A stretch of DNA of 63,428 nt, filler included. It is 9 parts of 9 records of this genome, joined end to end, with 100 filler letters (N's around TTAATTAATTAA, not from the genome) between each part and the next. Parts side by side here need not be neighbours in the genome. Positions count along the whole stretch, not along the records: positions 27,580 to 33,063 come from DRR378314_2743; 8 more parts are not named here. The stretch is one strand, 5' to 3'. Under the pieces are notes generated by a model. That model was given only the letters and a program-made list of their open reading frames with translations. It made no database searches and was not told where the DNA came from. Position 1 is the stretch's first letter; each line of letters starts with the position of its first letter. This document shows, piece after piece, positions 9,463 to 55,152 of the stretch. Position numbers and translations under genes: made by a program.

Positions 9463-9562
9463 NNNNNNNNNNNNNNNNNNNNNNNNNNNNNNNNNNNNNN
9501 NNNNNNTTAATTAATTAANNNNNNNNNNNNNNNNNNNNNNNNNNNNNNNNNNNNNNNNNNNN
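9463..9562. other. Artificial contig linker
   Basis: 44 N + TTAATTAATTAA + 44 N. Confidence 0.99.
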
Positions 9563-9564
9563 CC

Positions 9565-12500
9565 GGCGATGCGTCGGCGTTTACCGGTATTGGGATTGAT
9601 GTGGGTACCACGGGCAGCGGCGGACGCCGCGGGTCTCTTCCGCGGACATCGTCTCTGGACACGCAGTCGTGGAAATTCGATGCGGAAGTGGAGTCGGCGT
9701 TTAGCGACGGCGACGACACGGACGGCGACGAGTCGCTCGTTTCGCTCACGGGCGGCGCGGGCCCCGCGGGTATGAGCTATGGATCCGGCGGGCGCGGCGG
9801 CGGCGGAAGGGACGATATCGGCGCTCCGGCGCGGTATGCGCTTGCGGCGAAAGCGGATGCGCTTCTGGCGGCCGTGGGGCATTACGTCAACGGGTCGCGT
9901 GTGATCTGGCTGTCCGTGGACGTGCCGCTGCGGCTGCTCGACGCGGGGCTGGGCCCATCCGTGGACACGCCTGTGCTCTTGCACCCTGTACGCCTGGTGC
10001 GGTCGATGTACAATGCGGCTATCCGGCGACTGGAGCCGATTGCCACCGGCGGCGAGCAAATCGACGCAACAACCGAGCAGCTGCTGCCTGTTTTGCACAC
10101 CGCGTCGCTCACGTTGCGCCTCGTGTGCGCCGCGGAGAGCCCGTTGACTGCTGCGGAGCTGCGCTCGGCTGTGAGCCTGGCGCGGAGCCTGGGGCTGGTC
10201 CGCGCTGCGGATGCGGCGCTCCTGCGCGACGATGGGTGGAGCGGGGCATCGCTTCCGGGCTCTTCTTCGCCGTCGGATATGTCGACAGTATCGGCCGCTC
10301 CCTCGGCGAGCTCCGTCTCGAAGGGGAAGTCTCCCGAGGCGAGCTCGCGGCACGGCGGCCGCCGGTCGCCGCTTTCCGAGCACGGCGGCAATGCCGTCGA
10401 CGACGCCGACAGCACCGATGGCTCCACGATCAGCGTCTCGCACACGACGCCGATGTCGCTGTGCGCGCCGCTCCTCTCCCGCAACGGCGAAATGCTGATG
10501 GCCACGCACGACTCGCTGCGCAGCTGGCTGGTGTCTCAGGAACGAAACGTCGTGGCGGACGCGGGGACTCCTGCGTGCGCGACGCGCGCGGTGTGCCTGC
10601 GACTGTTGGTGGTCGGAGCCGCGCTGTCGCTGCGCTCGTGCGCGTTTGGCGGGATTAGCGACGGCGGCGCGGAAGGGAGCGATGCAGGCATGCCTTCGCT
10701 CTCGCTGTCGGCTGCGCAGCTTCTCGACTGCGAGCCGGCCACCGTGCGTGCTGTGCTAGAGGCTGGCGCGTTCCATCCTGTCTCTGTCCGGTCTGCCGAG
10801 CACGCGTCGTTCCTGTTTGTCCGGATGTGCGAAGCTGCCGTGCCGATCCTCGAGCGCGACGCCGTGGCGCTCCGCGGCGTATTTGCGTCGTGCGTGGCGC
10901 CCGCGCACGCCGACATGCTGGTGGCGCTGATTCACGGGCGGCACATTGGCCTGCTGGGGCCGCTTGTGTCTGCTGGCGTTCTCGGAACGCGGCCCTCTGC
11001 GGCGCCGCTGCTTCTACACGAGGCGGTGCTGCGCGGCTCTGCGGGCGTCGAACTCGACTGGGCGGTCGAGGTCGCAACGGCGTCGGAGCGGGCGCGACGT
11101 GGCACGCGGCGCGATGCGTACGGCCTCCCCGCCGTCCACTATGCGGCCATGTGCGGGAACCGCGCTGCGCTGCGGCGCTTCGCGAAGCTTGAGATTCCAC
11201 AAGAGGTGGCGGAAACTGTGAATCAGATCACGGGCAGCAGCAGCATTGGGGCGTCCGTCCTTGACGGGGAGCGCCGCGGCTCTGTCATCGGCACGGCGCC
11301 GTCGGGCCGTCGCGGGAGCGCGGACCGCACGCGGAGCACGATCGACAGCGAAGCAACCGACCTCGGCACTCTCGATAGCGCTATGACGTCGCGGAACAGC
11401 TACGAGAGCTCTGAGCCTCCAAGTGCGATTGTTGTGACTTCGCCTACGATGCTGTCGCATGGCATTCGAACGCGCGGATTCTCGCGGCGCGATTCGACGG
11501 ACGACGATGGCGGTGGCATGCCGTCGCGGCGGAGTTCGAGCGAAGACGACGGCTCGCGGGCGGCGACGGCGGCGGCGGTCCTTGCAGCGCGGCGAGGCAG
11601 CGCGTCGAGCACGGGCAGCGGCGGCGCGCCAGCGCCGACGATTCAGCGCAGCGGCGCGTCGTCGGGGTCGCTGTGGTCGCTGCGCTCGGCTGCGTCTGGG
11701 TCGTCCCGGTCGATCACTCTCGCGGAGAACCACGCGTCTGCGCTGCTCGACGCGGCGGGCCGCTCGGCGCTGCATCACGCGGCAGCGCACAACCAAGCTG
11801 TGGCCGTGCGCGACCTGGTTGACAATGCTGGGGCGAGCGTGGAGGCGCGCGACGAGATGGGCGCGACGCCTCTGCACGCAGCTGCCGAGTCCGGGAACGA
11901 CGAGACGGCCGAGGCTTTGATGGCGCTTGGCGCCGATCCAGCTGCGCGCGAGACCACGTTTAGCCGCACGCCGCTTCACCTCGCTGCCATGCACGGGCGT
12001 GTCGCGTGCGTCCGAGCGCTCCTGCGGTCGCAGGAATTCACGGCGGATGGTATACATGTGGATGACATGGTGGGCGTGGAAAGCGATCGCGATGGGGAGG
12101 GCAAGTCCGCGCAGGACAGCGGGGGCGACGATGACGACGACAGCGGCAGTGACGAAGGCACCGCCAGCGCCAAAGTGCGCCTTATCGATCTCGTGGATGT
12201 CGAGGGTCGCACCGCGCTGCATCTGGCGGCGGCGCACGGCCACGCGCGCGTCGTCGCGCTTCTCATTGAGAGTGGCGCGAATGCCATGGCGCGGGACCAG
12301 TGGTACGGCGAGATGGCGCTGCACCTCGCCGCGCAGGCGCCGACGGGAGCGGCGAGCGTCAAGGTCCTGTGCAGCGCGGGGCCGCGCGCGGCCTCTGTGC
12401 GCGAGCGCTGGCTGGGGCGTACGCCGTTGCACTACGCGTGTGTGCTTGGAAACGTGGACATGATTCGTTCACTTGTGCGGGCTATTTCGAGCGTGCAGCA

Positions 12501-14828
12501 GTCGCAGGAGCGCTCTGCGTCGGTGCGCGAAGACGGCGAAGACAGTGGTGGCGTGGTGTTTAGCAGCGATAGCGACGACCCCGACGACGGGTCTGCCAGC
12601 GGCAGTGACGACGACGCCGACGACAACATATCGGCTAGCTCCACGGAAGAGGCACGCCAAGTGGAGCGCCTGCGCCGTGAGCTCAGCGGGCAAAGCACCG
12701 ACGACATTCCGCTGGGTCGGAGCCCGAGCCGAGGCGGTGTCGATCTGCATGACGACGACGGTGCGACGCCGCTGCATATAGCAGCCATGCACGGCCACGC
12801 AGCTGCTGCGGCCGTGCTGCTCGGAAGCGGCGCGTCTCCTCTGGCGCGCGATGCGCGCGCGCGCACGCCGCTTCACTATGCGTCGGAGTGCGGCGCTGCG
12901 GCGCTTGCGCGTCTCCTGCTTCGGTCGGCAGCGGCCGACTGTGACGGCGACGACAGCGAGAAAGCTCGCCAAGTACTTGATGGCTATCACGATCTGCACT
13001 CGGCGCTCCGAGCGCGCGATGCTCGCGGGTGCTCAGCGGCGCACCTTGCTGCAAGGGGCGGGCACCTGCGCGTGTTGAACGCGCTGGCGGATGCGGGTGC
13101 GATCAGCGTCCACCGTGACGAGCGCGGACGGACTGTCGCGCACGTTGCTGCTGCGCACGGAAGAGCGGATGCGCTGAGTGTTCTTCTTGTGGCGTCGCCG
13201 TCGTTGGTGGACGTGTGCGACCGCGGCGGGGCCACTCCCCTGCACGCAGCCGCAGCGCACGGCCAGGATGGCGCGCTGGCGATTCTTTTGCACGCGGGCG
13301 GTAACATGCACGCTCGCGACTGCATTGGGCGCGTTGCTCTGCATCTTGCCGCCGACGAAGGGCACACCGTCTGCGCCGCCATGCTCGTCGCTCGCGACGA
13401 CAGCCTCCTTGGCGCTCGTGACTGCTTTGGCCTTACTCCGGTACACCTCGCCGCGCGCGCTGGTCGCCTCTGCGCCCTTCGTGTATTCGCAGAAGTGCTG
13501 CTGCAACGCGCGAAAGCGGGTTCGCAGGGCGGTGCGAGCGGGGGCGGCGCAAGCGGAGGCGGCGCGAGCGGAGCCAGCGGCGAGCGCGCCTCTGGGGATG
13601 GCGCTGGGGTCAAGCGCAGCGCGGCAGGAGCGAATGGGCATGGCGGCGACGACGGCGCGACGAGCGAGGCGCCAGCGGCGCCGCCGGAAAAGCGGTCGCG
13701 TCCTGTTGTGCGCGTTGTTGTCCAAGCTCCGGACGACGAAAGTTCCGACGATGGAAGTGAGGACGGCAGTGGGCTGCGTAGCCGACCGTTTACCGTGGAT
13801 GCCACCGATGACGATGGCGCGTCAGCGCTTCTGTATGCAGCCGCGGGCGGGCACACGGCGTGCATGCGCCTGTTGGGCGATGTGCTGCGCGCCTCGTGGT
13901 GCGTGCGCGACTCGCGAGGCCGCTCGGTTGCGCATCTTGCCGCTGCGGGCGGTCACACGGCGGCGCTGAGGCTTGCATTCGAGAAAGTCGGCATTGCACG
14001 GTCGACGACACCTGTCCACGATGGCGACGGCGGTAGTCGGCGACCTCGCTCTGGCGAGTGCATGTCGATCGGCGCTGTGGAGGCGCTTGACGTCCTTCTG
14101 GCTCCCGACACAGAGGGGTGGACGCCCTTGCACTATGCGGCGTGGAACAACTCCGCGGAGGCCGTGCAAGAGCTGATTGAAGTGGGCGGCGCGGAACTTG
14201 TCCGAACATCGGACAGCAGCGCGTCTCCGCACGTGCTGGCTCGCCGCAGTGTATTGTCGCGCGGCTTGTCGACGGATCAGCTGTCTGCGGTTGACTCTGT
14301 GGATGTGCTGAGTGCCGTTAGCTCTGTTGTGCTGTCTCCTGTGGCGTCGCCCACGGGCTCGGACGCCGACAGTGCTTCTGCGGCGTCCGACTCTTCGGAT
14401 GACGATGATGAGGCGGACGACGAAGGAAAGCGCGTGCGTCGCGGTAGCAGCGCGTCAGACGAGCGCGCTGGCGACGCGGACGGAAGCGGACACGCGGCTG
14501 CGCTGGCGCTGATTGCCGGGAATACTCCCCTCCATTATGCGGCCAACTTTGGCAACGACCACGCCGTCGAGGTGCTGCTTGCCCACGGGGCTGACGGGAC
14601 GCTTCCTAACGTGAACGGGATGACGCCGCTGCATTGCGCAGCGTTTCACGGACACGCGCGCGCGACGGACCTGATAGCGCAGGAGTGCCCGGCTGCCGTC
14701 GATACGCTGGATTCGTCGGGCCGCGGCGCGCTGCACTATGCGGCGGAGCACGGGCACGCGGATGCGGTGGCGGCGCTCCTGCGCGCCAGAGCCAATGCGA
14801 CCATGTCGGACGGGGGCGGGAACGCGCC
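9565..14828 (+). CDS. Large ankyrin-repeat protein, partial at both ends (probably eukaryotic)
   Basis: The frame is open across the whole contig. About 20 TPLH.AA..G-type repeats are separated by Ser/Asp/Gly-rich low-complexity inserts. Confidence 0.88.
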
Positions 14829-14928
14829 NNNNNNNNNNNNNNNNNNNNNNNNNNNNNNNNNNNNNNNNNNNNTTAATTAATTAANNNNNNNNNNNNNNNN
14901 NNNNNNNNNNNNNNNNNNNNNNNNNNNN
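14829..14928. other. Artificial contig linker
   Basis: 44 N + TTAATTAATTAA + 44 N. Confidence 0.99.
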
Positions 14929-21503: not shown

Positions 21504-21603
21504 NNNNNNNNNNNNNNNNNNNNNNNNNNNNNNNNNNNNNNNNNNNNTTAATTAATTAANNNNNNNNNNNNNNNNNNNNNNNNNNNNNNNNNNNNNNNNN
21601 NNN
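21504..21603. other. Artificial contig linker
   Basis: 44 N + TTAATTAATTAA + 44 N. Confidence 0.99.
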
Positions 21604-25891: not shown

Positions 25892-26002
25892 CCGGTTACA
25901 TGTGTTGCATGAAGTATTGCCAGAACCTTGCTGTAAACTTAAGGTTTGCTAAGAGATAAAGACATTTTTTGAATGCGGCCCTTAACCGCGGAGCGACAGC
26001 AA

Positions 26003-26878
26003 ATGGCCACGGCCCACGTCTTGATTGCCGATATTACCGGCAGCACAAGCCTGTATGATAGATTGTCCGATCAAGACGCTTTGGCGCAGGTTAGCGCGAT
26101 TCTGGCACAGATGCGCACGATCATCGAAGACAACGGCGGGCATTGCGTCAAATCACAGGGCGACGATACGCTCAGCTTTTTCAGCGATGCCGCCAGCGCC
26201 TTTACCGCAGCCCGCGAGATGATACAGGCCGACTGGGGTGAGGGTCTGGGCGTGCATGCGGGTGCCCATTGCGGGGATGTGCTAAGTCAGGATTCCGACA
26301 TCTACGGTGACGCGGTAAACACCGCCGCGCGACTGGCCGCCTTGGCCAAACCCGGTGAGGTGCTGATTGGTGATACGGTTTTTGAACAACTGGCCACCCC
26401 TTTGCAGGCGCTGTTTGTCTCAATGGGTGGGGTAAAACTAAAAGGCAAACGCGACGCGACGCGGGTGCATTCCTTTGCCGTCAGTGACCTGTCCACGCAG
26501 ACCGTTCTGTTTGGCATGAAAGACTCTCCCATTGGGCCGCGCACCGAATCTGCGGTGCTTACCTGCGGATCCAAGGAATGGCCGCTGCTGGATGGGGAAA
26601 GCGTCATGGTCGGACGGTCATCCGATTGTCAGGCGGTGCTGGAACACCCTTGGGTGTCGCGCAAACACGGCATTTTCGAACTGCGCAGCGCACAGCTGGA
26701 ATATACCGATCACAGTTCCTCCGGCAGCACGGTAATCACCTCGGGCGGGCAGGAATATACCCTGCAACGCCGCTCCATGTTGCTGAGCGGTGAAGGCATG
26801 GTGCTGGTCGGCACCCGCGACAAAACCGTCGCCAGTTCGATCATCCGCTACAGCACCAATGATCTGGTGCCGGACTAG
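26003..26878 (+). CDS. Class III adenylate cyclase with C-terminal FHA domain
   Basis: ADITGST, VKSQGD (Lys), DIYGDAVNTAARL (Asp; N..R); FHA GR.....VSRKH. Confidence 0.88.
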   Translation: MATAHVLIADITGSTSLYDRLSDQDALAQVSAILAQMRTIIEDNGGHCVKSQGDDTLSFFSDAASAFTAAREMIQADWGEGLGVHAGAHCGDVLSQDSDIYGDAVNTAARLAALAKPGEVLIGDTVFEQLATPLQALFVSMGGVKLKGKRDATRVHSFAVSDLSTQTVLFGMKDSPIGPRTESAVLTCGSKEWPLLDGESVMVGRSSDCQAVLEHPWVSRKHGIFELRSAQLEYTDHSSSGSTVITSGGQEYTLQRRSMLLSGEGMVLVGTRDKTVASSIIRYSTNDLVPD

Positions 26879-27479: not shown

Positions 27480-27579
27480 NNNNNNNNNNNNNNNNNNNNN
27501 NNNNNNNNNNNNNNNNNNNNNNNTTAATTAATTAANNNNNNNNNNNNNNNNNNNNNNNNNNNNNNNNNNNNNNNNNNNN
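27480..27579. other. Artificial contig linker
   Basis: 44 N + TTAATTAATTAA + 44 N. Confidence 0.99.
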
Positions 27580-28710
27580 ATACAAGGGCTTGGTACACTG
27601 ATACTATCATTATTATTATGGAGAAATCAGATGGAAATTGACGAAACACACACTTGCGCGAGGGGCTTTGCGCTTGTCGCGCGCGACCAGCGAAAGAGCA
27701 AGGGGGCTGAGCAAACAGCTACAAAACGTACGCGCACGATCTTCCAACGAATCGTCCATGGCAGCAAAGCAGACCCAGTATGACGAGGAAATAGAAAGAC
27801 GCGGGTTTTTTCCTTCCGTACGCAAGATACTCCCGTCGCTGCGTTGCGGTGGATTGGACGGCAAAACCCTCCTGTAGCAGTTGCTGAGCCACGCTGGTGT
27901 GCGCTGCACTGCGCAGCCTTCGCTGCGACGGCGGGAAGAGAGGAACCAAGTACACCCTAAAATTATTGTGTCCCATATTTATGCAAAGTAGGAAAGTTCG
28001 CGACGCTTGCACGACGATGCTTCGCCTCAGCACCTCTGCACAGCACAAGCGGGCCCACTCCGTCGCTAGTGCAAAAATATATAGAAGGCGTCCAGAACAA
28101 AAACGTGGTCAATTTCTTTCTATAGCCGCAGCTGCGTTCCCGTGACATGCATTCTTGTATTCGCTTTTCACTTTCCCCGAGACCTGGAGACTGCACTGGG
28201 CGGCAGCGCGGAGCGTTGGCAGTGGGGACGTGCGTGATCACACCGTTACCTCAGCCAGCATAAGCCTTTCGCGCTCCGCGAGCGCGCTATGACAACAGAA
28301 AAAAATGCAGAAGAAAGAAAGAAAAGAGAATAAAAACACCTCTTCTCGGTTTGAAATTGCACACAAACACTGCGGAAGAGCAATCCGCAGAGAGCACCTC
28401 GCCCACCGATCAGTCCACGAACTCGAATGGGGTCCGTTGCATTCACGGGCGCCCGTGGGTTTCCTACCGTACTGCCGCAGGACGGGAAGGAAGCCGCACT
28501 TCCAGCCCGCCCCGCTGGGCACCACACTTCACGAGGTGGTTGTGAGCAACGTAGCACATGCGCTGTGTGAGTTGGAATGCGCTCCGCGAACCTGCGGTCG
28601 CTCAGTGCCGCTTTCCCGCGCCTCAGGCGCCCAACGGAACTCGGCCCGTGGGATAACGAGCCGGGCAGGGAGATCATCGCTGGCACTGAGACCGGAAGCG
28701 TGCCCATCGA

Positions 28711-31700
28711 TTAGTTCGACACTTCGCCGATCAGGTACTCCTCCAGCATGTCATCCACCTTCGGGAACGGATGCTGATCGCCACGGAATCCTTCCGACGC
28801 ATCGCCTCCGGCATTGTTCAGGATCGACTCGCCACCCGGATGATCTTCGACGAACGTGGTCAGATCGTACACTTTGCCATCAATAATAAGCCACAAGTCT
28901 TTCGCCGAATCGTGCTTCGCGACTTCTTCGCGTGTAAACTTCTTCAGGGACGATGAGGATGAACCAGCAGCCTTTGCCGGCGCGGAAGACCCCGCCTTGC
29001 TCCCGGGTGCCTGCGCTGCCTTCGCGGAGGGCGTGGTGCCGGCCTTGAACTTGAGCGCGCGCCCAATTGTCTCCTTGCGACGGCGGTAGCGCACCGTGCA
29101 GGGCGGCATCGGGCCGACGACCATCGCTGCGTAGTCCGCCTCGGGGACGTCTCCGACGAGCTCCATATCGAAATTGCGCAGCAGGATACTCCAGATCGTG
29201 CGCACCTGCAGGAAGGCGAAATTCTCTCCCATGCAGCCGTGGCGCCCGCCACCGAACGCCTGGTAGCAGAAGGGGCGCTTCTTATCTTCGGCACGATCGG
29301 GGTCGTAGCGCTGCGGGTCGTACTCGTCGGGGTGAGAAAATACGCTCGGAAGACGACCGTTCGCCGCCGGCGAAGTGATGACCATATCGCCGGCTGGGAT
29401 GACGAATTCCTTCGATTGCAGCGGCTGGATAGCTTTGCGCATCAACATAATCAGCGGTGGGTACATCCGAAGCGCCTCCTTCATGGCATTGTACAGCTCC
29501 GACATTGCCGAAACGGACTCGTGCGTGAGCTCGTCTCCGTACTGCTTGACAATGGCCTCTTGCTCGCGCAGCAGGCGCGGTATGTGGCGCTTCTTGTCAG
29601 CAAGCATCAGCAATCCAGTCCAAGTGGCTGTGATCGACGAAGTGTGCTGGCCAGCGAAAAGCGCCACGATCAGAATACCCGTGATCTCGTCATCGCTCAG
29701 CATCGTGCCATCCTTGTACTCGGCCTCGATCAGGACCTGCAGAAAATCGTCTTCGCGGTGACCGGACTTGCGGCGGTTTTGGATGACCTTGGCGAACACT
29801 TCGCCCATCTCCTTGCGCGCCCAGTCGCGCTTCTTGTGCGCGGGGAGCGGTGCGTACGGGAAAAACACTGAGATTGGCGTCATGCCCAGATCAAGGTAGC
29901 TGTACAGGCCGGCAACCTTCTCATGCAGATTCTCGCGCACTTCGCGACCAAGAAGAGCGCGCGATGCAGTCAAGATAATGAGCTGGCTCATCGATTCGCG
30001 GAGGTCAATGACGCCTTCATCGCCCCACGTTGAGAAGAACTCCTGTGCCTCGGCAACCATCATGTCGACGTACGTGCGCATTTTCTTGCCACTGAGCGCG
30101 TGTCCGACAAACTTGAGCTGTTGCTGGAAAACTTTCAGATCGGCAGAGTCGTACACGATGCCGCGGCCAAACACCGGGATCGTGAACTTGTACGCCTCCT
30201 TCTGCGACAGCTGCTCGTCGGGCGCGCGGTAAAACTGGTCAACAGCCTCGGGGCCGACCAGGAACGTGAGGCGAACCCACAAAATCTTGAGCGTGAACAC
30301 GTCACCGTACTGCGCATAATAAAGCAAACGGGAACGTGGCCGGAGCGCGGAACCGATGAGTACGCAGCGTTCAAACGAGATCCACGGACGACAAAGGCAG
30401 GGCCAGGTGAGAGGTACGCGGCGCAAGGGCGCGGGAGTGCCTTGCCCGCTCCGTCACGACCACGCTCAGCAACAAGCTCACAGCCTCGGAACTCGTATGA
30501 GCAGTCGACCTATTCAGACATTCCTTGAATAAATTAACGCGTTCAATTTTATGTACCGTCTGCAATTTGCTCGCGTGGAAACAGGAGTCATGGGAGAGAG
30601 ACTGGGCAAGTATCGACAACCTTCGCTGCGTTTCGCACGTTCCCTGGCGCGCCGTCGGACGGCTCGGACGACTTGCCCAGGCCCTCGTCCTTCCCAAGCA
30701 CGCACCTTTTTCGAGAGAGAGAGAATCAGATCAATGGGATTCTTGTACAGTCGAAAGATGACTCCAAGGATAGGGAGGAAGCCATTGACAGTGGGCGGCG
30801 CATTCTTCAGCTGCGCGAGAGGGAGAAGAAAGAAGAAAAGGAAAAACAAGCACGGCGCAACTCACGCGTAAGTGGGGAGTGATTGCCAAAGAGAACCCGT
30901 TTCGCACACAACGCACACGTCCCAGGACGAGCCCCTCGACGAGCCACCAGACGCACTGAGAGCGCATCGTTCTGACAGTAGGTAACAATGCGTGCACAAA
31001 CGTGATTGTGAAAGGCATGTCAACTCTGCGCACAAGAGGCGCCCGTCTGAAGCGGCAACCGATGCTGCGCTGTAGCACCTGCCCCTTGCAGTACACACCA
31101 GCTGAGCAGAAGACTGCCAGCTACCGGCAACAAAAGAGAAGACTGCCACGCAAAAGAATTACCACTAAGCGAGTCGCCGCCACCCCAGGCAATACACAAT
31201 GCAATGAATGAGGAAGAAGCTTGCAACATGCAGCTTCTGCTGCACGTAGAGAAGGAGCCTTGAATGTCTCGCGATGCATGTTCCGTCGCTGAAGCATACA
31301 CGTTGGTGGCCGGGCAGGGAGCAACAGCCAGCCAGACACCACACTCCGCACGTCCGCGGCGGCAGCTCACACAACGGTTGCAGGCAAAAGGGCGGTGCGC
31401 GGCAGAAGAAAAAAATCGATGGGTCGCAACAAACAGGTCACTCGGAATCATGCCCGTGGCGTGCATGGTACAACATCGTGCACACAAGAGCTTCGCAGGC
31501 GCTTCTCTGGAAGAATTCGAGTCACCGCAGCGGCGCAGACGCGGTGTGGTCCGCCGTCCTTCGCGAACCTGCGGTGTGGAGCGTCCAGCCCCCTGGTGCT
31601 GGGCGGCCTCTGGGGCCCCTTCACGGGCGTTGATGACCGGCTAAAAAAAGCGCGTACACAGCGGTTTTCTTCACGCTTTCTCGCGCGATACAAGATTGCG

Positions 31701-32524
31701 GGGCGCATACGATCTACTTCAAATGAATGCAAATGTATAGGAGCACGGTTGTGGCCTATGCTGCATAAAAAAGCGCTCTCGCCCTTCTCCCCACTCGCCC
31801 CACAAGCGGGCAAGCGGCGATGCAGCGCGCGCCAGTTCATCATGAGAGTGCTACACTGGGAGCGGACGCGCGTCGCAACGGCGTGCCCCACGGCGCACCC
31901 AACACCACAGACTGCGCTCGTTCCCAAGCGCGTGAATTCATGGGCACGCAGGCATATGGAATATTCATGCGATATGATCATACTGCATAAACGTTTACCA
32001 ACTAAGTGCGCAAGGTTCTGCCGCAGCGCCACAATCGTGAGAGAATTCAGAGCGGAGCAACCGCGCCAGTACAGTACAGTACAGCGTCAGCCGAGACCGT
32101 GCGCGACGCAACGCGGCGGCAGGTCCCTTCACGCAGCTAAAGCAACTGCACAAAGCACTTGCGGGACTGCGATCCTGACCCGTTCTTGATGTCTACAGCA
32201 GCCACTTATTACAGTCCTGCTTTTCCTTTCATTCCGCGCCGACTGGCGTGACGGCTCGTTGCGCACTTGAGAAAGCACCGGCACTGACCAGGGAGCGGAG
32301 CGCGCAGTAGTGCGCTGTTGCGCTGCCCGGTCGCTCGCGTGGCAAGCAGACCGGATAGCAGGCCAAGCGCGCCCACGGCGCAGTGCAACGTGATCCGGAC
32401 GTACCGAAGCAGTCTGGATCCACGAGCGGATGATATAAACTACCATCATCGCCCCCAAGATCTGCCAGAAATACTGCTGCAGGTAGTCATTGGCAAGCGT
32501 TAGAATACCGCTCACGTCAAACAT
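28711..32524 (-). CDS. CYP51: Sterol 14-alpha-demethylase CYP51 fused to C-terminal cytochrome b5; exons 32524-32405, 30810-30706, 30309-28711 (607 aa)
   Basis: Exon 1 is a TM anchor and exon 2 carries PP..G.LP.LG. Exon 3 has YGDVFT, PVFGRGIVYD, AGQHTSS, EALR and FGGGRHGC, then an A/S/P/K linker and the b5 motif GKVYD.T.F...HPGG. Both introns are phase 0 GT-AG. Confidence 0.92.
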
Positions 32525-33063
32525 GGCGAAATATCGGTGTACGCTAGTCGCGGAACCAGGCGGCCGGCACAGGGACAACACAGGGGAGCGAAAGTTCCTC
32601 GCCCTCGCACGCGGCGCGCAGTGCGAACAGCGAGGCGAATCAGCGCGCCGTGATGTCTACACAGTAGGGTCGCCTGCCTGCACGTCCATCCTCCAAGGGA
32701 TGCTGTGTAGAGTTACCAACGTTTTCCATCGAATACATTCCACCCCTAGCCCACCGATGGACTTGCGCGCAACCTCCGCAGTTCGTCTGTGAACGTGTAC
32801 CCACCCTTGCGAGCTCCGCACGGTCTTGTTTTGCTTACTTTCCACGTGTAAGGGGCTACATACACTGCTTAAGAATATATATGGAGCTAGGCACTTGAAA
32901 GAGAAGAAAAGCTTTCCACGACGGTGGCCAATCGCGCTTGGAATCGCACACAACCCACGTGTGCCCACACCAAATCAAGGACAGGAGAAGAGTTGCGCGC
33001 CCTCGAAGTACGCGGCGCGCATGCATGCGAATTTTCCCTTTGAACAGCCATAGATTTGCCAAA

Positions 33064-33163
33064 NNNNNNNNNNNNNNNNNNNNNNNNNNNNNNNNNNNNN
33101 NNNNNNNTTAATTAATTAANNNNNNNNNNNNNNNNNNNNNNNNNNNNNNNNNNNNNNNNNNNN
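33064..33163. other. Artificial contig linker
   Basis: 44 N + TTAATTAATTAA + 44 N. Confidence 0.99.
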
Positions 33164-33201: not shown

Positions 33202-33534
33202 TCAACCTTCGAATTCGCGCCAGGTCCAGCCCGGACGCTTGGCGTTGATCTTGTCCTTGACCTCCTGCGGCGGCTCGGTGGTCTGAGCGCTGTAGGTGGC
33301 AAAAACCTCGAGCGTCTGGGTGCAGCGGGCAGCGTGGAACCACTTGCCGCAGCCGTTGACGTGACGCCAGCGTTCCAGGTGCACCCCGCGCGGGTTTTCC
33401 TTCATGAACAGGTAGTCGTGGAATTCATCATCCGAGGAGCCGGGGCCAAAGCGTTTCAGATGCGCTTCGCCACCACCATGCAGTTCGGTTTCTTCGGCTT
33501 TGACGCCGCAATAGGGACATTCAAGGATCAGCAT
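33202..33534 (-). CDS. soxD: Sarcosine oxidase delta subunit
   Basis: MLILECPYCG..EE.E...GEAH, ENPRG..LERW.H..GC..WF. Confidence 0.93.
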   Translation of the reverse strand: MLILECPYCGVKAEETELHGGGEAHLKRFGPGSSDDEFHDYLFMKENPRGVHLERWRHVNGCGKWFHAARCTQTLEVFATYSAQTTEPPQEVKDKINAKRPGWTWREFEG

Positions 33535-33735
33535 TGTGCGTGCTCCGTCGAAAGAGTTACAGCAGCGCCCTGCCCCGCAGAGATGGCGGGCAGTGTCGCG
33601 GGATGAGATGTTCGGGGAGCAGGCCAATGAGGCGCGCCACCTGAGGTCGGCGCCGCAGCGAAAGTCACACGTCGGGCAAGACGCGTGTCGCAAACATAGG
33701 ACACGCCACCATCAGAGGCGGCGTGCCCCTGATCG

Positions 33736-40396: not shown

Positions 40397-40496
40397 NNNN
40401 NNNNNNNNNNNNNNNNNNNNNNNNNNNNNNNNNNNNNNNNTTAATTAATTAANNNNNNNNNNNNNNNNNNNNNNNNNNNNNNNNNNNNNNNNNNNN
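40397..40496. other. Artificial contig linker
   Basis: 44 N + TTAATTAATTAA + 44 N. Confidence 0.99.
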
Positions 40497-42730: not shown

Positions 42731-43426
42731 ATGACGATACCCGTTCTCACCCTCCAAGATGCCGCATTATCGCTGGATGGCAATGCCGGAAGGGTTGATA
42801 TCCTGCACGACATCTCTCTGACCGTGAACCAGGGTGAAACTTTGGGGCTGGTCGGTCCGTCCGGTTCGGGGAAATCCTCACTGCTGATGCTGATGGGCGG
42901 GTTGGAACAGGCCACCGGTGGCCGCGTTACAGCATTGGGCCATGATCTGACGGAAATGGGCGAGGATGCGCTAGCGAGATTCCGACGAGACGCCATGGGT
43001 GTGGTGTTTCAGAACTTCCACCTGATCCCGACGATGACCGCACTTGAGAACGTGGCCACCCCACTGGAACTTGCGGGGCACAAAGATGCTTTCAAGCGTG
43101 CCGAGGCCGAGCTAGAGGCGGTGGGACTGTCTCACCGAAGTGATCACTACCCGGCGCAGTTGTCAGGTGGCGAGCAGCAACGCGTGGCACTGGCGCGCGC
43201 TTCGGCCCCGCGCCCACAGATTTTGCTGGCTGACGAACCCACAGGCAATCTGGATGAAGCCAACGGATCGGCGATCATTGATCTGTTGTTCGGCCTGCGC
43301 GACAGACACGGTGCCACTCTGGTTCTGGTCACACACAGCCATACGCTGGCGCAGAAATGCGACCGTGTTGTCCGCTTGCGGGATGGCCGTATCGCTGAGG
43401 AGTCTCAGCGCGAGGCCGCCGAATGA
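42731..43426 (+). CDS. ABC transporter ATP-binding protein (YbbA-like)
   Basis: GPSGSGKS, LSGGEQQR, ADEPTGNLD; divergent from tesA. Confidence 0.93.
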   Translation: MTIPVLTLQDAALSLDGNAGRVDILHDISLTVNQGETLGLVGPSGSGKSSLLMLMGGLEQATGGRVTALGHDLTEMGEDALARFRRDAMGVVFQNFHLIPTMTALENVATPLELAGHKDAFKRAEAELEAVGLSHRSDHYPAQLSGGEQQRVALARASAPRPQILLADEPTGNLDEANGSAIIDLLFGLRDRHGATLVLVTHSHTLAQKCDRVVRLRDGRIAEESQREAAE

Positions 43427-45951
43427 GCCTGCATCTGGCCGGACGCCTGGCACGGCGCGAGCTGCGTGGTGGGTTACGCGGGTTTCGGGTATTTCTGGCC
43501 TGTCTGGCCTTGGGCGTTGCAGCGATTGCCGCGGTCGGCATGGTTCGCCAGGCAATCCAGACCGGCTTGCAGCAAGAGGGTGCATCGCTTCTGGGCGGGG
43601 ATGCGCAGTTGGAATTCACTTATCGCTTCGCCAACGATCAGGAGCGCGCGTGGATGGAAGGAACCGCGCAGGCAGTTTCCGAAGTTGTCGACTTCCGGTC
43701 CATGGCCGTTACGGGCAACGATACGAGCGCGCAACGCGCGCTGACCCAGGTTAAGGCTGTGGATGACGCTTACCCGCTGTTAGGTTCTGCGATCCTGAAA
43801 CCTGCGCTTTCTCTGACCGATGCATTTGCAGGCGCCGATGGGCTACCCGGCGCGGTTATGGCCCCCTCTCTGATTGACCGTTTGAACCTTACCGTTGGGG
43901 ATCAGTTTGACCTTGGCACTCAGAGATTTGTTCTTATGGCCGCGTTATCGCATGAACCTGATGGTGCGGCAGATGGGTTCTCGCTGGGACCGCGCACATT
44001 GGTTCGCACAGAAGATCTGCAGTCCTCGGGCCTGTTGGCTCCGGGCACTCTATTTTCCACCAAATACAGGTTGGATCTGCCTCAGACCGCCGAGCTGGAT
44101 GCACTGTCGTCCGAGGCGAGGCAGGCTTTTGAGGGAACCGGTATGCGCTGGACCGATGCCCGCAATGGTGCGCCGGGAATTTCTGAATTCGTGGGCCGCC
44201 TCAGCGCGTTTCTGGTGCTGGTTGGCCTATCCGGCTTGGCAGTGGGCGGGATCGGTGTGTCTGCTGCCGTACGCGCCTATCTTTCCCAGAAAACAGAGAC
44301 AATTGCGACACTGCGGACTTTGGGCGCGGATCGGGCCACGATCTTTCAGACCTATATGATCCAGATTGCCGTTCTGTCTGGCATCGGCATTATCATGGGG
44401 CTGATCCTGGGTGGGATATTGCCGCTGCTGCTGGCCCCGGTAATCGAAACCCAATTGCCAATCCCCGCAGTATTCTCGCTGTATCCGCAGCCATTGTTCG
44501 AGGCCGCACTTTATGGGGTGCTGACGGCGTTCCTGTTCACACTATGGCCTCTGGCCAGAACCGAAGAGGTGCGCGCGGCAACCTTGTTCCGGGATGCGCT
44601 GTCCTCAGCGCGCAGTTTACCGCGCCTGAACTATGTCGTTGCAACAGCCGTGGGTCTTGCGGTGCTGATCGGATCCGCCGCATGGTTCAGCGGTTCTACC
44701 CGGTTGACGTTATGGACCAGCACTGGATTGGCAGGGGCGCTTGCGCTGCTGGCACTTTCTGCATTCGCCGTACGCAAACTCGCCCAGGCAGGCACCCCTT
44801 GGGTGCGCGGGCATCCAGCCCTGCGATGGGCCTTGTCCGCCATATCTGACCCGCGCGAGGGCGCGGCTTCGGTGGTTCTGTCCCTTGGGCTCGGTCTTTC
44901 GGTTCTTGCAGCGGTAGGGCAGATCGACGGCACCCTACGCAATGCAATTTCGGGGAACTTGCCGGAAGTGGCACCCTCGTATTTCTTCGTGGATATCCAG
45001 AAGGACCAGATGCCGGGGTTCAGCGAGCGTCTTGATAACGACCCAGCCGTCACCCGGGTCGAAAGTGCGCCGATGCTGCGCGGGATCATTACCAAGATCA
45101 ACGGGCAGCCTGCGCGCGATGTTGCAGGCGATCACTGGGTTCTGGAGGGTGACCGCGGAGTGACCTATTCCGCCCAACCGCCGCAAAATGCACGCGTCAT
45201 AGACGGAAATTGGTGGCCTGACGATTATGCAGGCACTCCTCAGGTCAGTTTTGCCGCCGAAGAGGCTGCTGAAATGGGTCTGCAATTGGGTGATGAACTG
45301 ACGGTTAATATCCTTGGCCGCGACATTACGGCTGAACTGACCTCACTGCGCGAGGTTGATTTTTCCACCGCTGGAATGGGATTTGTCATGTCGATAAACC
45401 CATCTGCACTGGCGGGTGCCCCCCATAGCTTCATCGCGACCGTCTACGCGGAAGAGCAGGCAGAGGCCGCCATCCTGCGCGATCTTGCTGGGCAATATCC
45501 CAACATCACCGCTGTCCGCGTCCGCGATGCCATCGACCGGGTCTCTGGTTTGTTGGCAGGCTTGGCAGCCGCCACCTCATATGGCGCGGGCGTGTCCTTG
45601 CTGACCGGGTTTCTGGTTCTAATCGGTGCTGCAGCCGCAGGAGAGCCCGCGCGCAGATACGAGGCAGCAATCCTCAAAACTCTGGGCGCGAACCGAGGCC
45701 GAATTCTACGTAGCTTTGCCTTGCGTGCGGTCCTGTTGGGGGCTGCCGCCGGATGTGTCGCCCTGTTGACCGGCATTGTGGGCGGTTGGGCGGTTGCCAC
45801 TTATATCTTCGACACAGAGTTCACGATCATCTGGCCATCCGCGTTAGGGATCGTTTTCGCAGGCATTGTCGTAACGCTGGGGGCGGGGATGCTCTTTGCC
45901 CTGCGCCCGCTCTCGGTACGCCCAGCCCGCATCCTGCGCGCAAGTGATTGA
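43423..45951 (+). CDS. FtsX-like ABC permease (YbbP-like)
   Basis: Two MacB/FtsX halves (IATLRTLGA; AILKTLGA), LLGGD, YFFVDIQ. Confidence 0.9.
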   Translation: MSLHLAGRLARRELRGGLRGFRVFLACLALGVAAIAAVGMVRQAIQTGLQQEGASLLGGDAQLEFTYRFANDQERAWMEGTAQAVSEVVDFRSMAVTGNDTSAQRALTQVKAVDDAYPLLGSAILKPALSLTDAFAGADGLPGAVMAPSLIDRLNLTVGDQFDLGTQRFVLMAALSHEPDGAADGFSLGPRTLVRTEDLQSSGLLAPGTLFSTKYRLDLPQTAELDALSSEARQAFEGTGMRWTDARNGAPGISEFVGRLSAFLVLVGLSGLAVGGIGVSAAVRAYLSQKTETIATLRTLGADRATIFQTYMIQIAVLSGIGIIMGLILGGILPLLLAPVIETQLPIPAVFSLYPQPLFEAALYGVLTAFLFTLWPLARTEEVRAATLFRDALSSARSLPRLNYVVATAVGLAVLIGSAAWFSGSTRLTLWTSTGLAGALALLALSAFAVRKLAQAGTPWVRGHPALRWALSAISDPREGAASVVLSLGLGLSVLAAVGQIDGTLRNAISGNLPEVAPSYFFVDIQKDQMPGFSERLDNDPAVTRVESAPMLRGIITKINGQPARDVAGDHWVLEGDRGVTYSAQPPQNARVIDGNWWPDDYAGTPQVSFAAEEAAEMGLQLGDELTVNILGRDITAELTSLREVDFSTAGMGFVMSINPSALAGAPHSFIATVYAEEQAEAAILRDLAGQYPNITAVRVRDAIDRVSGLLAGLAAATSYGAGVSLLTGFLVLIGAAAAGEPARRYEAAILKTLGANRGRILRSFALRAVLLGAAAGCVALLTGIVGGWAVATYIFDTEFTIIWPSALGIVFAGIVVTLGAGMLFALRPLSVRPARILRASD

Positions 45952-48153: not shown

Positions 48154-48253
48154 NNNNNNNNNNNNNNNNNNNNNNNNNNNNNNNNNNNNNNNNNNNNTTA
48201 ATTAATTAANNNNNNNNNNNNNNNNNNNNNNNNNNNNNNNNNNNNNNNNNNNN
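48154..48253. other. Artificial contig linker
   Basis: 44 N + TTAATTAATTAA + 44 N. Confidence 0.99.
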
Positions 48254-55052: not shown

Positions 55053-55152
55053 NNNNNNNNNNNNNNNNNNNNNNNNNNNNNNNNNNNNNNNNNNNNTTAA
55101 TTAATTAANNNNNNNNNNNNNNNNNNNNNNNNNNNNNNNNNNNNNNNNNNNN
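55053..55152. other. Artificial contig linker
   Basis: 44 N + TTAATTAATTAA + 44 N. Confidence 0.99.

Follow-up and report, generated by a model that had tools for sequence, protein, structure and literature searches.

The gene and its protein

The window analysed here is a stretch of 63,428 nucleotides, made of nine pieces of a genome assembly joined end to end. One of these, a contig piece of 5484 bp (27580-33063), carries a minus-strand gene that encodes a cytochrome P450 of the CYP51 family and a cytochrome b5 domain in a single polypeptide. Its three exons (32524-32405, 30810-30706 and 30309-28711) join to 1824 nt, that is 607 amino acids and a stop codon, with no internal stop. At its N-terminus the protein has a membrane anchor; a full P450 domain of the CYP51 family follows, then a linker of 42 amino acids and finally a complete cytochrome b5 domain that lacks a membrane tail. 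We conclude that this is a genuine eukaryotic gene with spliceosomal GT-AG introns, encoding a CYP51 fused to a canonical b5 domain.

All parts of the gene lie on the minus strand. Exon 1 (32405-32524) opens with the ATG at 32524 (start codon 32524-32522), runs for 40 codons that include the hydrophobic anchor, and is followed by GTACGT. Intron 1 (30811-32404; 1594 nt, GTACGTCC...TCGCGCAG) separates it from exon 2 (30706-30810), whose 35 codons, with CAG ahead and GTGCGT after, provide a proline-rich hinge and the start of the P450 domain. After intron 2 (30310-30705; 396 nt, GTGCGTGC...ATGCGCAG), exon 3 starts at 30309, directly behind a CAG. Its first part (29074-30309) encodes the CYP51 catalytic domain, with AGQHTSS in helix I, EALR and FGGGRHGCMG; its middle (28948-29073) encodes the linker; and its last part (28714-28947) encodes the heme-binding b5 domain. 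The stop codon (28711-28713) and a 3' untranslated region (28300-28710) complete the gene. A comparison of the 5.5-kb piece with Rfam gave no match at E <= 0.1, and the long intron 1 thus shows no sign of an RNA gene.

The open frame 28711-30453 (minus strand) translates as P0001, whose residue numbers we use for conserved positions below. In P0001 Pfam identifies a p450 domain (E 8.2e-58, residues 46-437) and a Cyt-b5 domain (E 7.5e-23, residues 507-578, covering profile positions 1-73 of 74); these are its only Pfam matches at E <= 0.01, and it contains no FMN, FAD or NAD(P)H reductase domain. The GC content of third codon positions is 0.65-0.79 over all parts of the gene, with no change of frame. 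A first-pass annotation, made from the letters of the window, had described the exon 30309-28711 as open from the P450 core into b5, and both the translation and the two Pfam domains confirm this. The motifs that it listed (AGQHTSS, EALR, FGGGRHGC, HPGG and DQH) are all found where it placed them. It had also proposed two upstream exons that supply an endoplasmic reticulum (ER) anchor and bring the protein to 607 residues; joining the exons gives exactly this length, and the Kyte-Doolittle mean over 19 residues reaches 1.3 near residues 18-40.

A spliced contig crosses the whole fusion

Contigs of a public sequencing run, X1, whose library type is listed as 'RNA?' (a guess), were aligned to 28300-32800. 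The run contains 0.99 of the sampled exon 3 words. One of its contigs, 2356 nt long with a word depth of 95, covers 28300-30309, 30706-30810 and 32405-32519, and thereby joins nearly all of exon 1 to exon 2 and exon 2 to exon 3. It omits exactly 30310-30705 and 30811-32404, the two introns, which read CT..AC on the plus strand and GT..AG on the strand of the gene. From 28300 to 30309 the contig is colinear with the window, passing unbroken through P450, linker, b5 and 3' untranslated region; there is no joint or indel in exon 3, and no splice or break that removes the b5 domain. The single base difference in exon 3 is synonymous (GTG>GTT, Val223). The 3' untranslated region reaches at least to 28300; this base is position 127 of the contig, which continues for a further 126 nt.

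A contig without the introns is what is expected of mRNA or cDNA, the alternative being an intron-less DNA copy. Whichever it is, a second and differently structured assembly has P450, linker and b5 in one piece. These contigs do not resolve isoforms or transcript ends, and a minor shorter form is possible. A second contig of the run (171 nt, depth 3) lies within intron 1, at 32110-32280, and is probably unspliced precursor.

This bears directly on the concern that the fusion is an artefact: two neighbouring genes joined by faulty assembly or by read-through, or else a b5 relic in decay, outside the mature protein. The assembly is indeed fragmentary, nine short contigs joined by artificial spacers, and the library type of the run is only guessed. 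Nevertheless, the intron-less contig comes from another data set and is colinear over all three parts; there is no stop, no frame change and no break in the even third-position GC content; and the junction is found again in other taxa, in transcriptomes as well as genomes, among 25 of the 120 clusters listed in the profile search described below. Because the contig is spliced at both introns and unbroken through P450, linker and b5, neither misassembly nor a merged gene model accounts for the fusion; together with the recurrence in other taxa, the contig largely refutes that explanation, and we consider an artefact hardly credible.

The P450 part is a CYP51

Among solved structures, the best relative of the P450 part is the Acanthamoeba-type obtusifoliol 14alpha-demethylase 6q2c (E 4.2e-145), and the top solved matches from this value downward are all CYP51s. 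They include 5tl8, a CYP51 of protist origin (E 7e-107), and 6mcw, the CYP51-ferredoxin of Methylococcus (E 1e-106, query residues 47-476). Named CYP51s of algae (red and green), amoebozoans and one lycophyte, namely those of Galdieria, Pyramimonas, Chlorokybus, Balamuthia, Vermistella, Luapelamoeba, Selaginella and Coccomyxa, share 52-56% identity with it. In P450 nomenclature, at least 40% identity to named members places a protein in the same family. Judged by these matches, the P450 part is a CYP51, of the plant, algal and amoebozoan type.

The residues expected of such an enzyme are in place. The heme-thiolate loop FGGGRHGCMG fits the pattern FxxGxxxCxG, and its Cys (codon 29233-29235) is invariant in three alignments of relatives. 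We take the signatures of CYP51 to be Y-x-x-F-x-x-P-x-F-G-x-x-V-x-Y-D in the B' helix region and A-G-Q-H-T-S in helix I; both stretches are present, as AYKFTIPVFGRGIVYD and FAGQHTSS respectively, and Y88, F90, F95, G96, Y101, D102, Q269, H270, T271 and S272 do not vary among 16 fused proteins. The Phe at the B'-helix position is presumably the mark of plant/protozoan-type enzymes that prefer C4-monomethyl sterols, which would suggest the same class of substrate here. The predicted activity is removal of the 14alpha-methyl group from sterols. An AlphaFold model of the exon-3 protein (532 residues), built with 31 aligned sequences, has a mean predicted local distance difference test score (pLDDT) of 83.6 and a predicted template modelling score of 0.76; within the P450 domain pLDDT is mostly 85-96.

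The linker and the cytochrome b5 domain

The 42-residue linker (28948-29073) contains 11 Ala, 9 Ser, 5 Gly, 5 Lys, 3 Pro and 3 Thr. In the AlphaFold model 34 of its residues (exon-3 residues 420-453) have pLDDT below 50, and the linker is predicted to be disordered. The first-pass estimate of about 35 residues was a fair one.

Downstream of the linker, the b5 part aligns with residues 3-77 of the solved microsomal b5 4hin (E 1.6e-18), over the whole core, with the ligands in register and without an insert. The two axial His codons are at 28840-28842 (in HPGG) and 28771-28773 (in DQH). Over exon-3 residues 451-532 the model shows a beta/alpha pattern, with pLDDT values in 10-residue blocks of 71, 91, 91, 79, 73, 80, 58, 84 and 75. 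On these features the b5 part is a true canonical bis-His b5, and it is predicted to bind heme and to cycle between Fe(III) and Fe(II). The protein ends 2 residues past the b5 core. Its last ~120 amino acids contain no hydrophobic tail, their best 19-residue Kyte-Doolittle mean being 0.58, which bears out the earlier description of a b5 without a C-terminal membrane segment. Because no tail follows the core, this is a b5 domain and not a tail-anchored b5. A complex prediction for the P450 domain against the b5 domain, run without controls and without use of the alignment supplied, gave a score of 0.00 and no answer, which is evidence neither way.

Conceivably, the b5 part could act on CYP51 without redox chemistry, as an activator, as a stabiliser or in the handling of heme, in the way reported for Dap1/PGRMC1-type proteins. 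The Pfam Cyt-b5 family does include the heme- and steroid-binding MAPR proteins, the group to which Dap1 and PGRMC1 belong, and MAPR proteins lack the His pair. Here both bis-His ligands are present and invariant, and the best solved matches are true cytochromes b5 (E 1e-18) that align over the whole core with no insert. MAPR proteins, according to the accessible part of one study, carry an insert between helices (10.1101/737684), and no MAPR chain is among the 58 matches listed for the b5 part. A domain of the MAPR type is ruled out by the His pair and by the insert-free alignment to canonical b5. Regulation of CYP51 by Dap1/PGRMC1 is the subject of several papers, as far as their accessible text goes, and would lend such a role some plausibility; even so, we consider a non-redox function very improbable.

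Relatives with the same architecture

The fusion is not confined to this gene. Cyt-b5 and p450 (PF00173 and PF00067) occur together in 6 of 120 homologues listed when a single protein was the query, and in 25 of 120 clusters listed when the query was a profile of 16 fused proteins. In an exhaustive HMMER search of 1.84 billion representatives at 50% identity, the 150 listed include 11 whose match to the profile extends from the P450 to the end of b5; of these, 8 are near full length and 3 are fragments. Named bearers include Fabomonas tropica and four chlorarachniophytes, and Bigelowiella natans and Amorphochlora amoebiformis are among the species concerned; the others are metagenome, metatranscriptome or MMETSP records. 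Some of the fused records are automatically named 'sterol 14-demethylase' or 'cytochrome P450/cytochrome b involved in lipid metabolism'. Among the matches listed, the best fused relative is that of Fabomonas (49% identity), and the closest sequence of any kind has 56% identity over the P450 part; the protein of the window is itself absent from the collections. All 16 fused proteins aligned share Cys407, His538 and His561, in an alignment whose mean column identity is 40%; this speaks for selection to keep heme binding in the P450 and b5 domains alike.

Further arrangements were seen among these matches. In three fused relatives (P0014, P0035/P0275 and P0086) the P450 is followed by a tandem pair of b5 domains. 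The P450 of P0308 (809 aa) is preceded by about 250 additional N-terminal residues, in which no Pfam family matches at E <= 1e-05. Within the 150 representatives listed, a domain of the 3beta-hydroxysteroid dehydrogenase (3beta-HSD)/C4-decarboxylase type stands N-terminal to CYP51 in P0150, P0186, P0195 and P0197, and an EBP (sterol isomerase-type) domain stands ahead of CYP51 in P0226; these could be natural sterol-enzyme fusions or merged gene models. Ten other listed representatives of 673-1694 aa (P0147, P0200, P0216, P0228, P0231, P0240, P0254, P0263, P0264 and P0273) consist of 5-11 b5 repeats, and their best-matching stretch is the b5 part only. A region search with the linker and b5 part returned 4 proteins from 488 candidates, none a P450, and had no bearing on the count of fusions; a protein atlas search returned generic P450 clusters only (scores 0.91-0.92).

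Searches of the literature, which left most subscription journals outside, found no description of a CYP51-b5 fusion or of any natural P450-b5 fusion; the statement in the first-pass annotation that no characterised CYP51-b5 fusion was known agrees with this. Its interpretation is supported in part. The architecture is apparently undescribed in print, but it is not a one-off, given the 25 clusters that carry both domains. Our provisional conclusion is that it is present in public databases for several protist lineages, yet apparently undescribed.

Comparison with known systems

Self-sufficient P450s of the P450 BM3/CYP102, CYP505 and P450RhF types carry an NAD(P)H-binding flavin reductase in the same chain. 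The protein described here resembles them in having its redox partner in one chain, joined at the C-terminus of the P450; it differs in having no reductase domain, and cannot draw on NAD(P)H itself. Candida CYP51, which Lamb et al. reportedly drove in 1999 with NADH-b5 reductase and b5, shares the b5 route to CYP51, although the b5 is free. A third group is formed by oxidoreductases with a fused b5: front-end and delta-9 desaturases, SCS7, flavocytochrome b2, sulfite oxidase and nitrate reductase. In these a tail-less b5 sits on the enzyme that it reduces, and the SCS7 fatty acid 2-hydroxylase (4zr0), flavocytochrome b2 and sulfite oxidase are themselves among the matches to our b5 domain. The acceptor in those enzymes, however, is a di-iron, flavin or molybdenum centre, whereas here it would be a P450 heme.

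The nearest parallel in design is MCCYP51FX of Methylococcus capsulatus (6mcw), in which a CYP51 is followed, across a simple linker, by a small one-electron carrier at the C-terminus, and which also needs a separate reductase. As in that type of fusion, P450 and carrier are covered here by one frame and one colinear spliced contig. MCCYP51FX is bacterial and soluble and its carrier is an iron-sulfur ferredoxin, whereas the present gene is eukaryotic and has introns, and its protein has a membrane anchor and a heme b5. In the accessible part of a recent paper, MCCYP51FX is cited as the sole natural CYP51 fusion (PMC13155568).

In function, the closest system may be that of plant CYP51A2 and CB5LP. 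There a b5-type hemoprotein with two His serves as the carrier for a CYP51, and the CYP51 of the window is of the plant, algal and amoebozoan type. The plant proteins are two separate polypeptides, whereas here the b5 is fused and is closest to canonical microsomal b5; CB5LP was compared by its description only. That description makes CB5LP topologically distinct from tail-anchored b5 and confined to red and green plants (PMC13155568, as far as available). A different solution is seen in the CBBR-CYP540A2 system, in which, according to the accessible text, a b5 route carries electrons to a P450 (PMC12462446); the b5 in that case is fused to its reductase and not to the P450. By analogy, the gene described here may be regarded as the b5 counterpart, in design, of the Methylococcus CYP51-ferredoxin fusion, and as a covalent version, in function, of the plant CYP51-CB5LP pair.

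Proposed function

We propose that this expressed, ER-anchored CYP51, which continues through a flexible linker into b5, carries its own tethered electron carrier for the CYP51 heme, a reading to which we give a probability of roughly 60%. With only p450 and Cyt-b5 domains in the chain, a separate flavoprotein must reduce the b5, and the protein is not self-sufficient. By analogy with plant CB5LP, the b5 heme would be reduced by NADH-cytochrome b5 reductase or by NADPH-P450 reductase. The linker would then let the b5 domain swing to the proximal face of the CYP51 domain, of its own chain or of a neighbouring one, where it would serve as donor to the P450 heme. Removal of the 14alpha-methyl group takes three oxygenation cycles, and the b5 would provide the second electron of each, if not more. 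The tether would raise the local concentration of the donor and would replace the membrane tail by which a free b5 stays near its acceptors.

Work on other systems is consistent with this proposal, within the parts of the papers that are accessible. In plants, CYP51A2 has an essential electron carrier in the b5-type protein CB5LP, which has two essential His and receives its electrons from NADH-b5 reductase or from NADPH-P450 reductase (PMC13155568). The CYP51 of Candida is reduced by a b5 from a virus (PMC11814380).

Several considerations weigh against the proposal, and we set them out together. The first is energetic. Midpoint potentials of b5 usually lie far above those of ferric P450s, so that b5 normally gives the second electron only. 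If the tethered b5 supplied only that electron, the need for P450 reductase would stay. As b5 donates the second electron well but the first poorly, we rate the version in which P450 reductase is also needed above the version in which b5 reductase suffices. A second consideration is that heme loading of the b5 and electron transfer from it are both predictions from homology.

The remaining considerations concern the history of the fusion and its relatives. A quick maximum-likelihood tree of the P450 part was built from 65 CYP51 rows, 15 fused and 50 non-fused and hand-picked from the listings. Columns with data in fewer than half of the rows were dropped, and the b5 with them. On this tree the fused rows are split over six or more positions, separated by non-fused CYP51s, with 7 state changes. 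The deep nodes are weak, with 23 of 62 inner branches open, and the P450 of the window stands alone, loosely beside the Galdieria and green-plant groups (support 81). The approximately unbiased test rejects a single clade of the 15 fused rows (difference in log-likelihood 99.6, p 0.0003); the group tested was defined by architecture, though the tree had been seen before the test. This scatter implies that b5 was repeatedly gained or is readily lost, and hence that it is dispensable in many lineages.

The tree of the b5 domains (78 columns, 59 rows, with a small and biased outgroup of 22 other b5 domains) looks different. In it the b5 domains attached to CYP51 form one group (Shimodaira-Hasegawa approximate likelihood ratio test 93), both domains of P0086 excepted, and the nearest to the b5 of the window are those of the marine proteins P0103 and P0126, at 59% identity. 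The two trees together fit an old fusion with repeated loss of b5, several fusions that drew on one b5 lineage, or transfer between lineages, and they cannot choose among these.

Finally, the CYP51s fused to 3beta-HSD (4 representatives) and to EBP (1) suit a scaffold or metabolon just as well as a tethered carrier. This leads to the main rival, in which the fused b5 serves chiefly in trans: CYP51 would be a membrane scaffold that offers b5 to the di-iron sterol C4-methyl oxidase and the C5-desaturase inside a complex for sterol synthesis, and would itself be driven by P450 reductase. C4-methyl oxidase and C5-desaturase both use b5. The CYP51 anchor is the sole tether of a canonical b5 that has no membrane tail of its own, the tandem b5 domains of three fused homologues exceed the need of one P450 heme, and the 3beta-HSD- and EBP-type fusions suggest that the pathway clusters around CYP51. 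However, these longer fusions could be merged gene models, and in the other b5 fusions considered or matched here (SCS7 4zr0, flavocytochrome b2, sulfite oxidase), it is the fused enzyme that accepts the electrons. Plant CYP51, moreover, uses a dedicated b5-type carrier, according to the available part of PMC13155568. We therefore consider service mainly in trans unlikely, and continue to prefer the b5 as a tethered carrier for its own CYP51.

The first-pass annotation had suggested that NADH-b5 reductase might drive the demethylation, with possible effects on azole sensitivity; both suggestions are conjectural. A bolder form of the tethered-carrier proposal can also be stated. CYP51-b5 fusions might be an old, scattered class of eukaryotic P450s, found in ancyromonads, chlorarachniophytes, this protist and several marine lineages, in which a b5 fed by NADH-b5 reductase gives both electrons of each cycle and no P450 reductase is needed; a b5-CYP51 partnership of the CB5LP type would then be ancestral to eukaryotes and not specific to plants. 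The Candida CYP51 work and the CBBR-CYP540A2 system lead us to keep a reading independent of P450 reductase open, but as a whole this extension is tentative and, in our view, rather doubtful.

Setting on the window

Sixteen runs of 44 N, paired around the 12-mer TTAATTAATTAA, divide the window into nine pieces of 5.3-9.5 kb with a GC content of 0.52-0.69. The eight resulting spacers (44 N + TTAATTAATTAA + 44 N) are identical and artificial, and lie at 9463-9562, 14829-14928, 21504-21603, 27480-27579, 33064-33163, 40397-40496, 48154-48253 and 55053-55152. Two of them flank the piece with the CYP51-b5 gene, which is alone on it. Adjacency across the spacers is meaningless, and frames that run through them are artefacts; the frame 9511-14880, for instance, reads through the spacers at both ends of the piece 9563-14828. 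Since all neighbouring genes lie beyond artificial spacers, they are unusable for context or taxonomy.

Features on the other pieces include a wall-to-wall ankyrin-repeat frame of 1789 aa and 69% GC (9563-14828, plus strand) and, on the piece before that of CYP51, an adenylate/guanylate cyclase catalytic domain followed by an FHA domain (25973-26878, plus strand). A match to the sarcosine oxidase delta subunit SoxD (E 8.8e-27) lies at 33202-33711 on the minus strand, and a match to the FtsX-like permease (E 2.3e-20) at 43399-45951 on the plus strand. Because these last two are typically bacterial families, the assembly may mix the protist with bacteria. The frames on other pieces are unlinked to the gene and may belong to other organisms.

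Implications

The electron supply of CYP51 is a picture still under revision. As reported in 2025, plants need a dedicated b5-type carrier for CYP51, and eukaryotic CYP51s are said to rely on separate redox partners (PMC13155568, from its accessible part). The fusion described here bears on this picture: a natural, expressed and conserved joining of CYP51 and b5 is independent genomic evidence for their cooperation outside plants. It also offers a ready one-chain system for the study of electron transfer from b5 to a P450, one that avoids reconstituting two proteins in a membrane, and it adds a heme-carrier type to the few natural fusions of P450s with their partners that serve as templates for engineering biocatalysts. 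Beyond this, the patchy distribution of the fusion is relevant to the organisation of sterol synthesis in early eukaryotes. If these proteins should prove to be an ancient class that works independently of P450 reductase, the fusion would be a 'Rosetta stone' for an ancestral partnership between b5 and CYP51.

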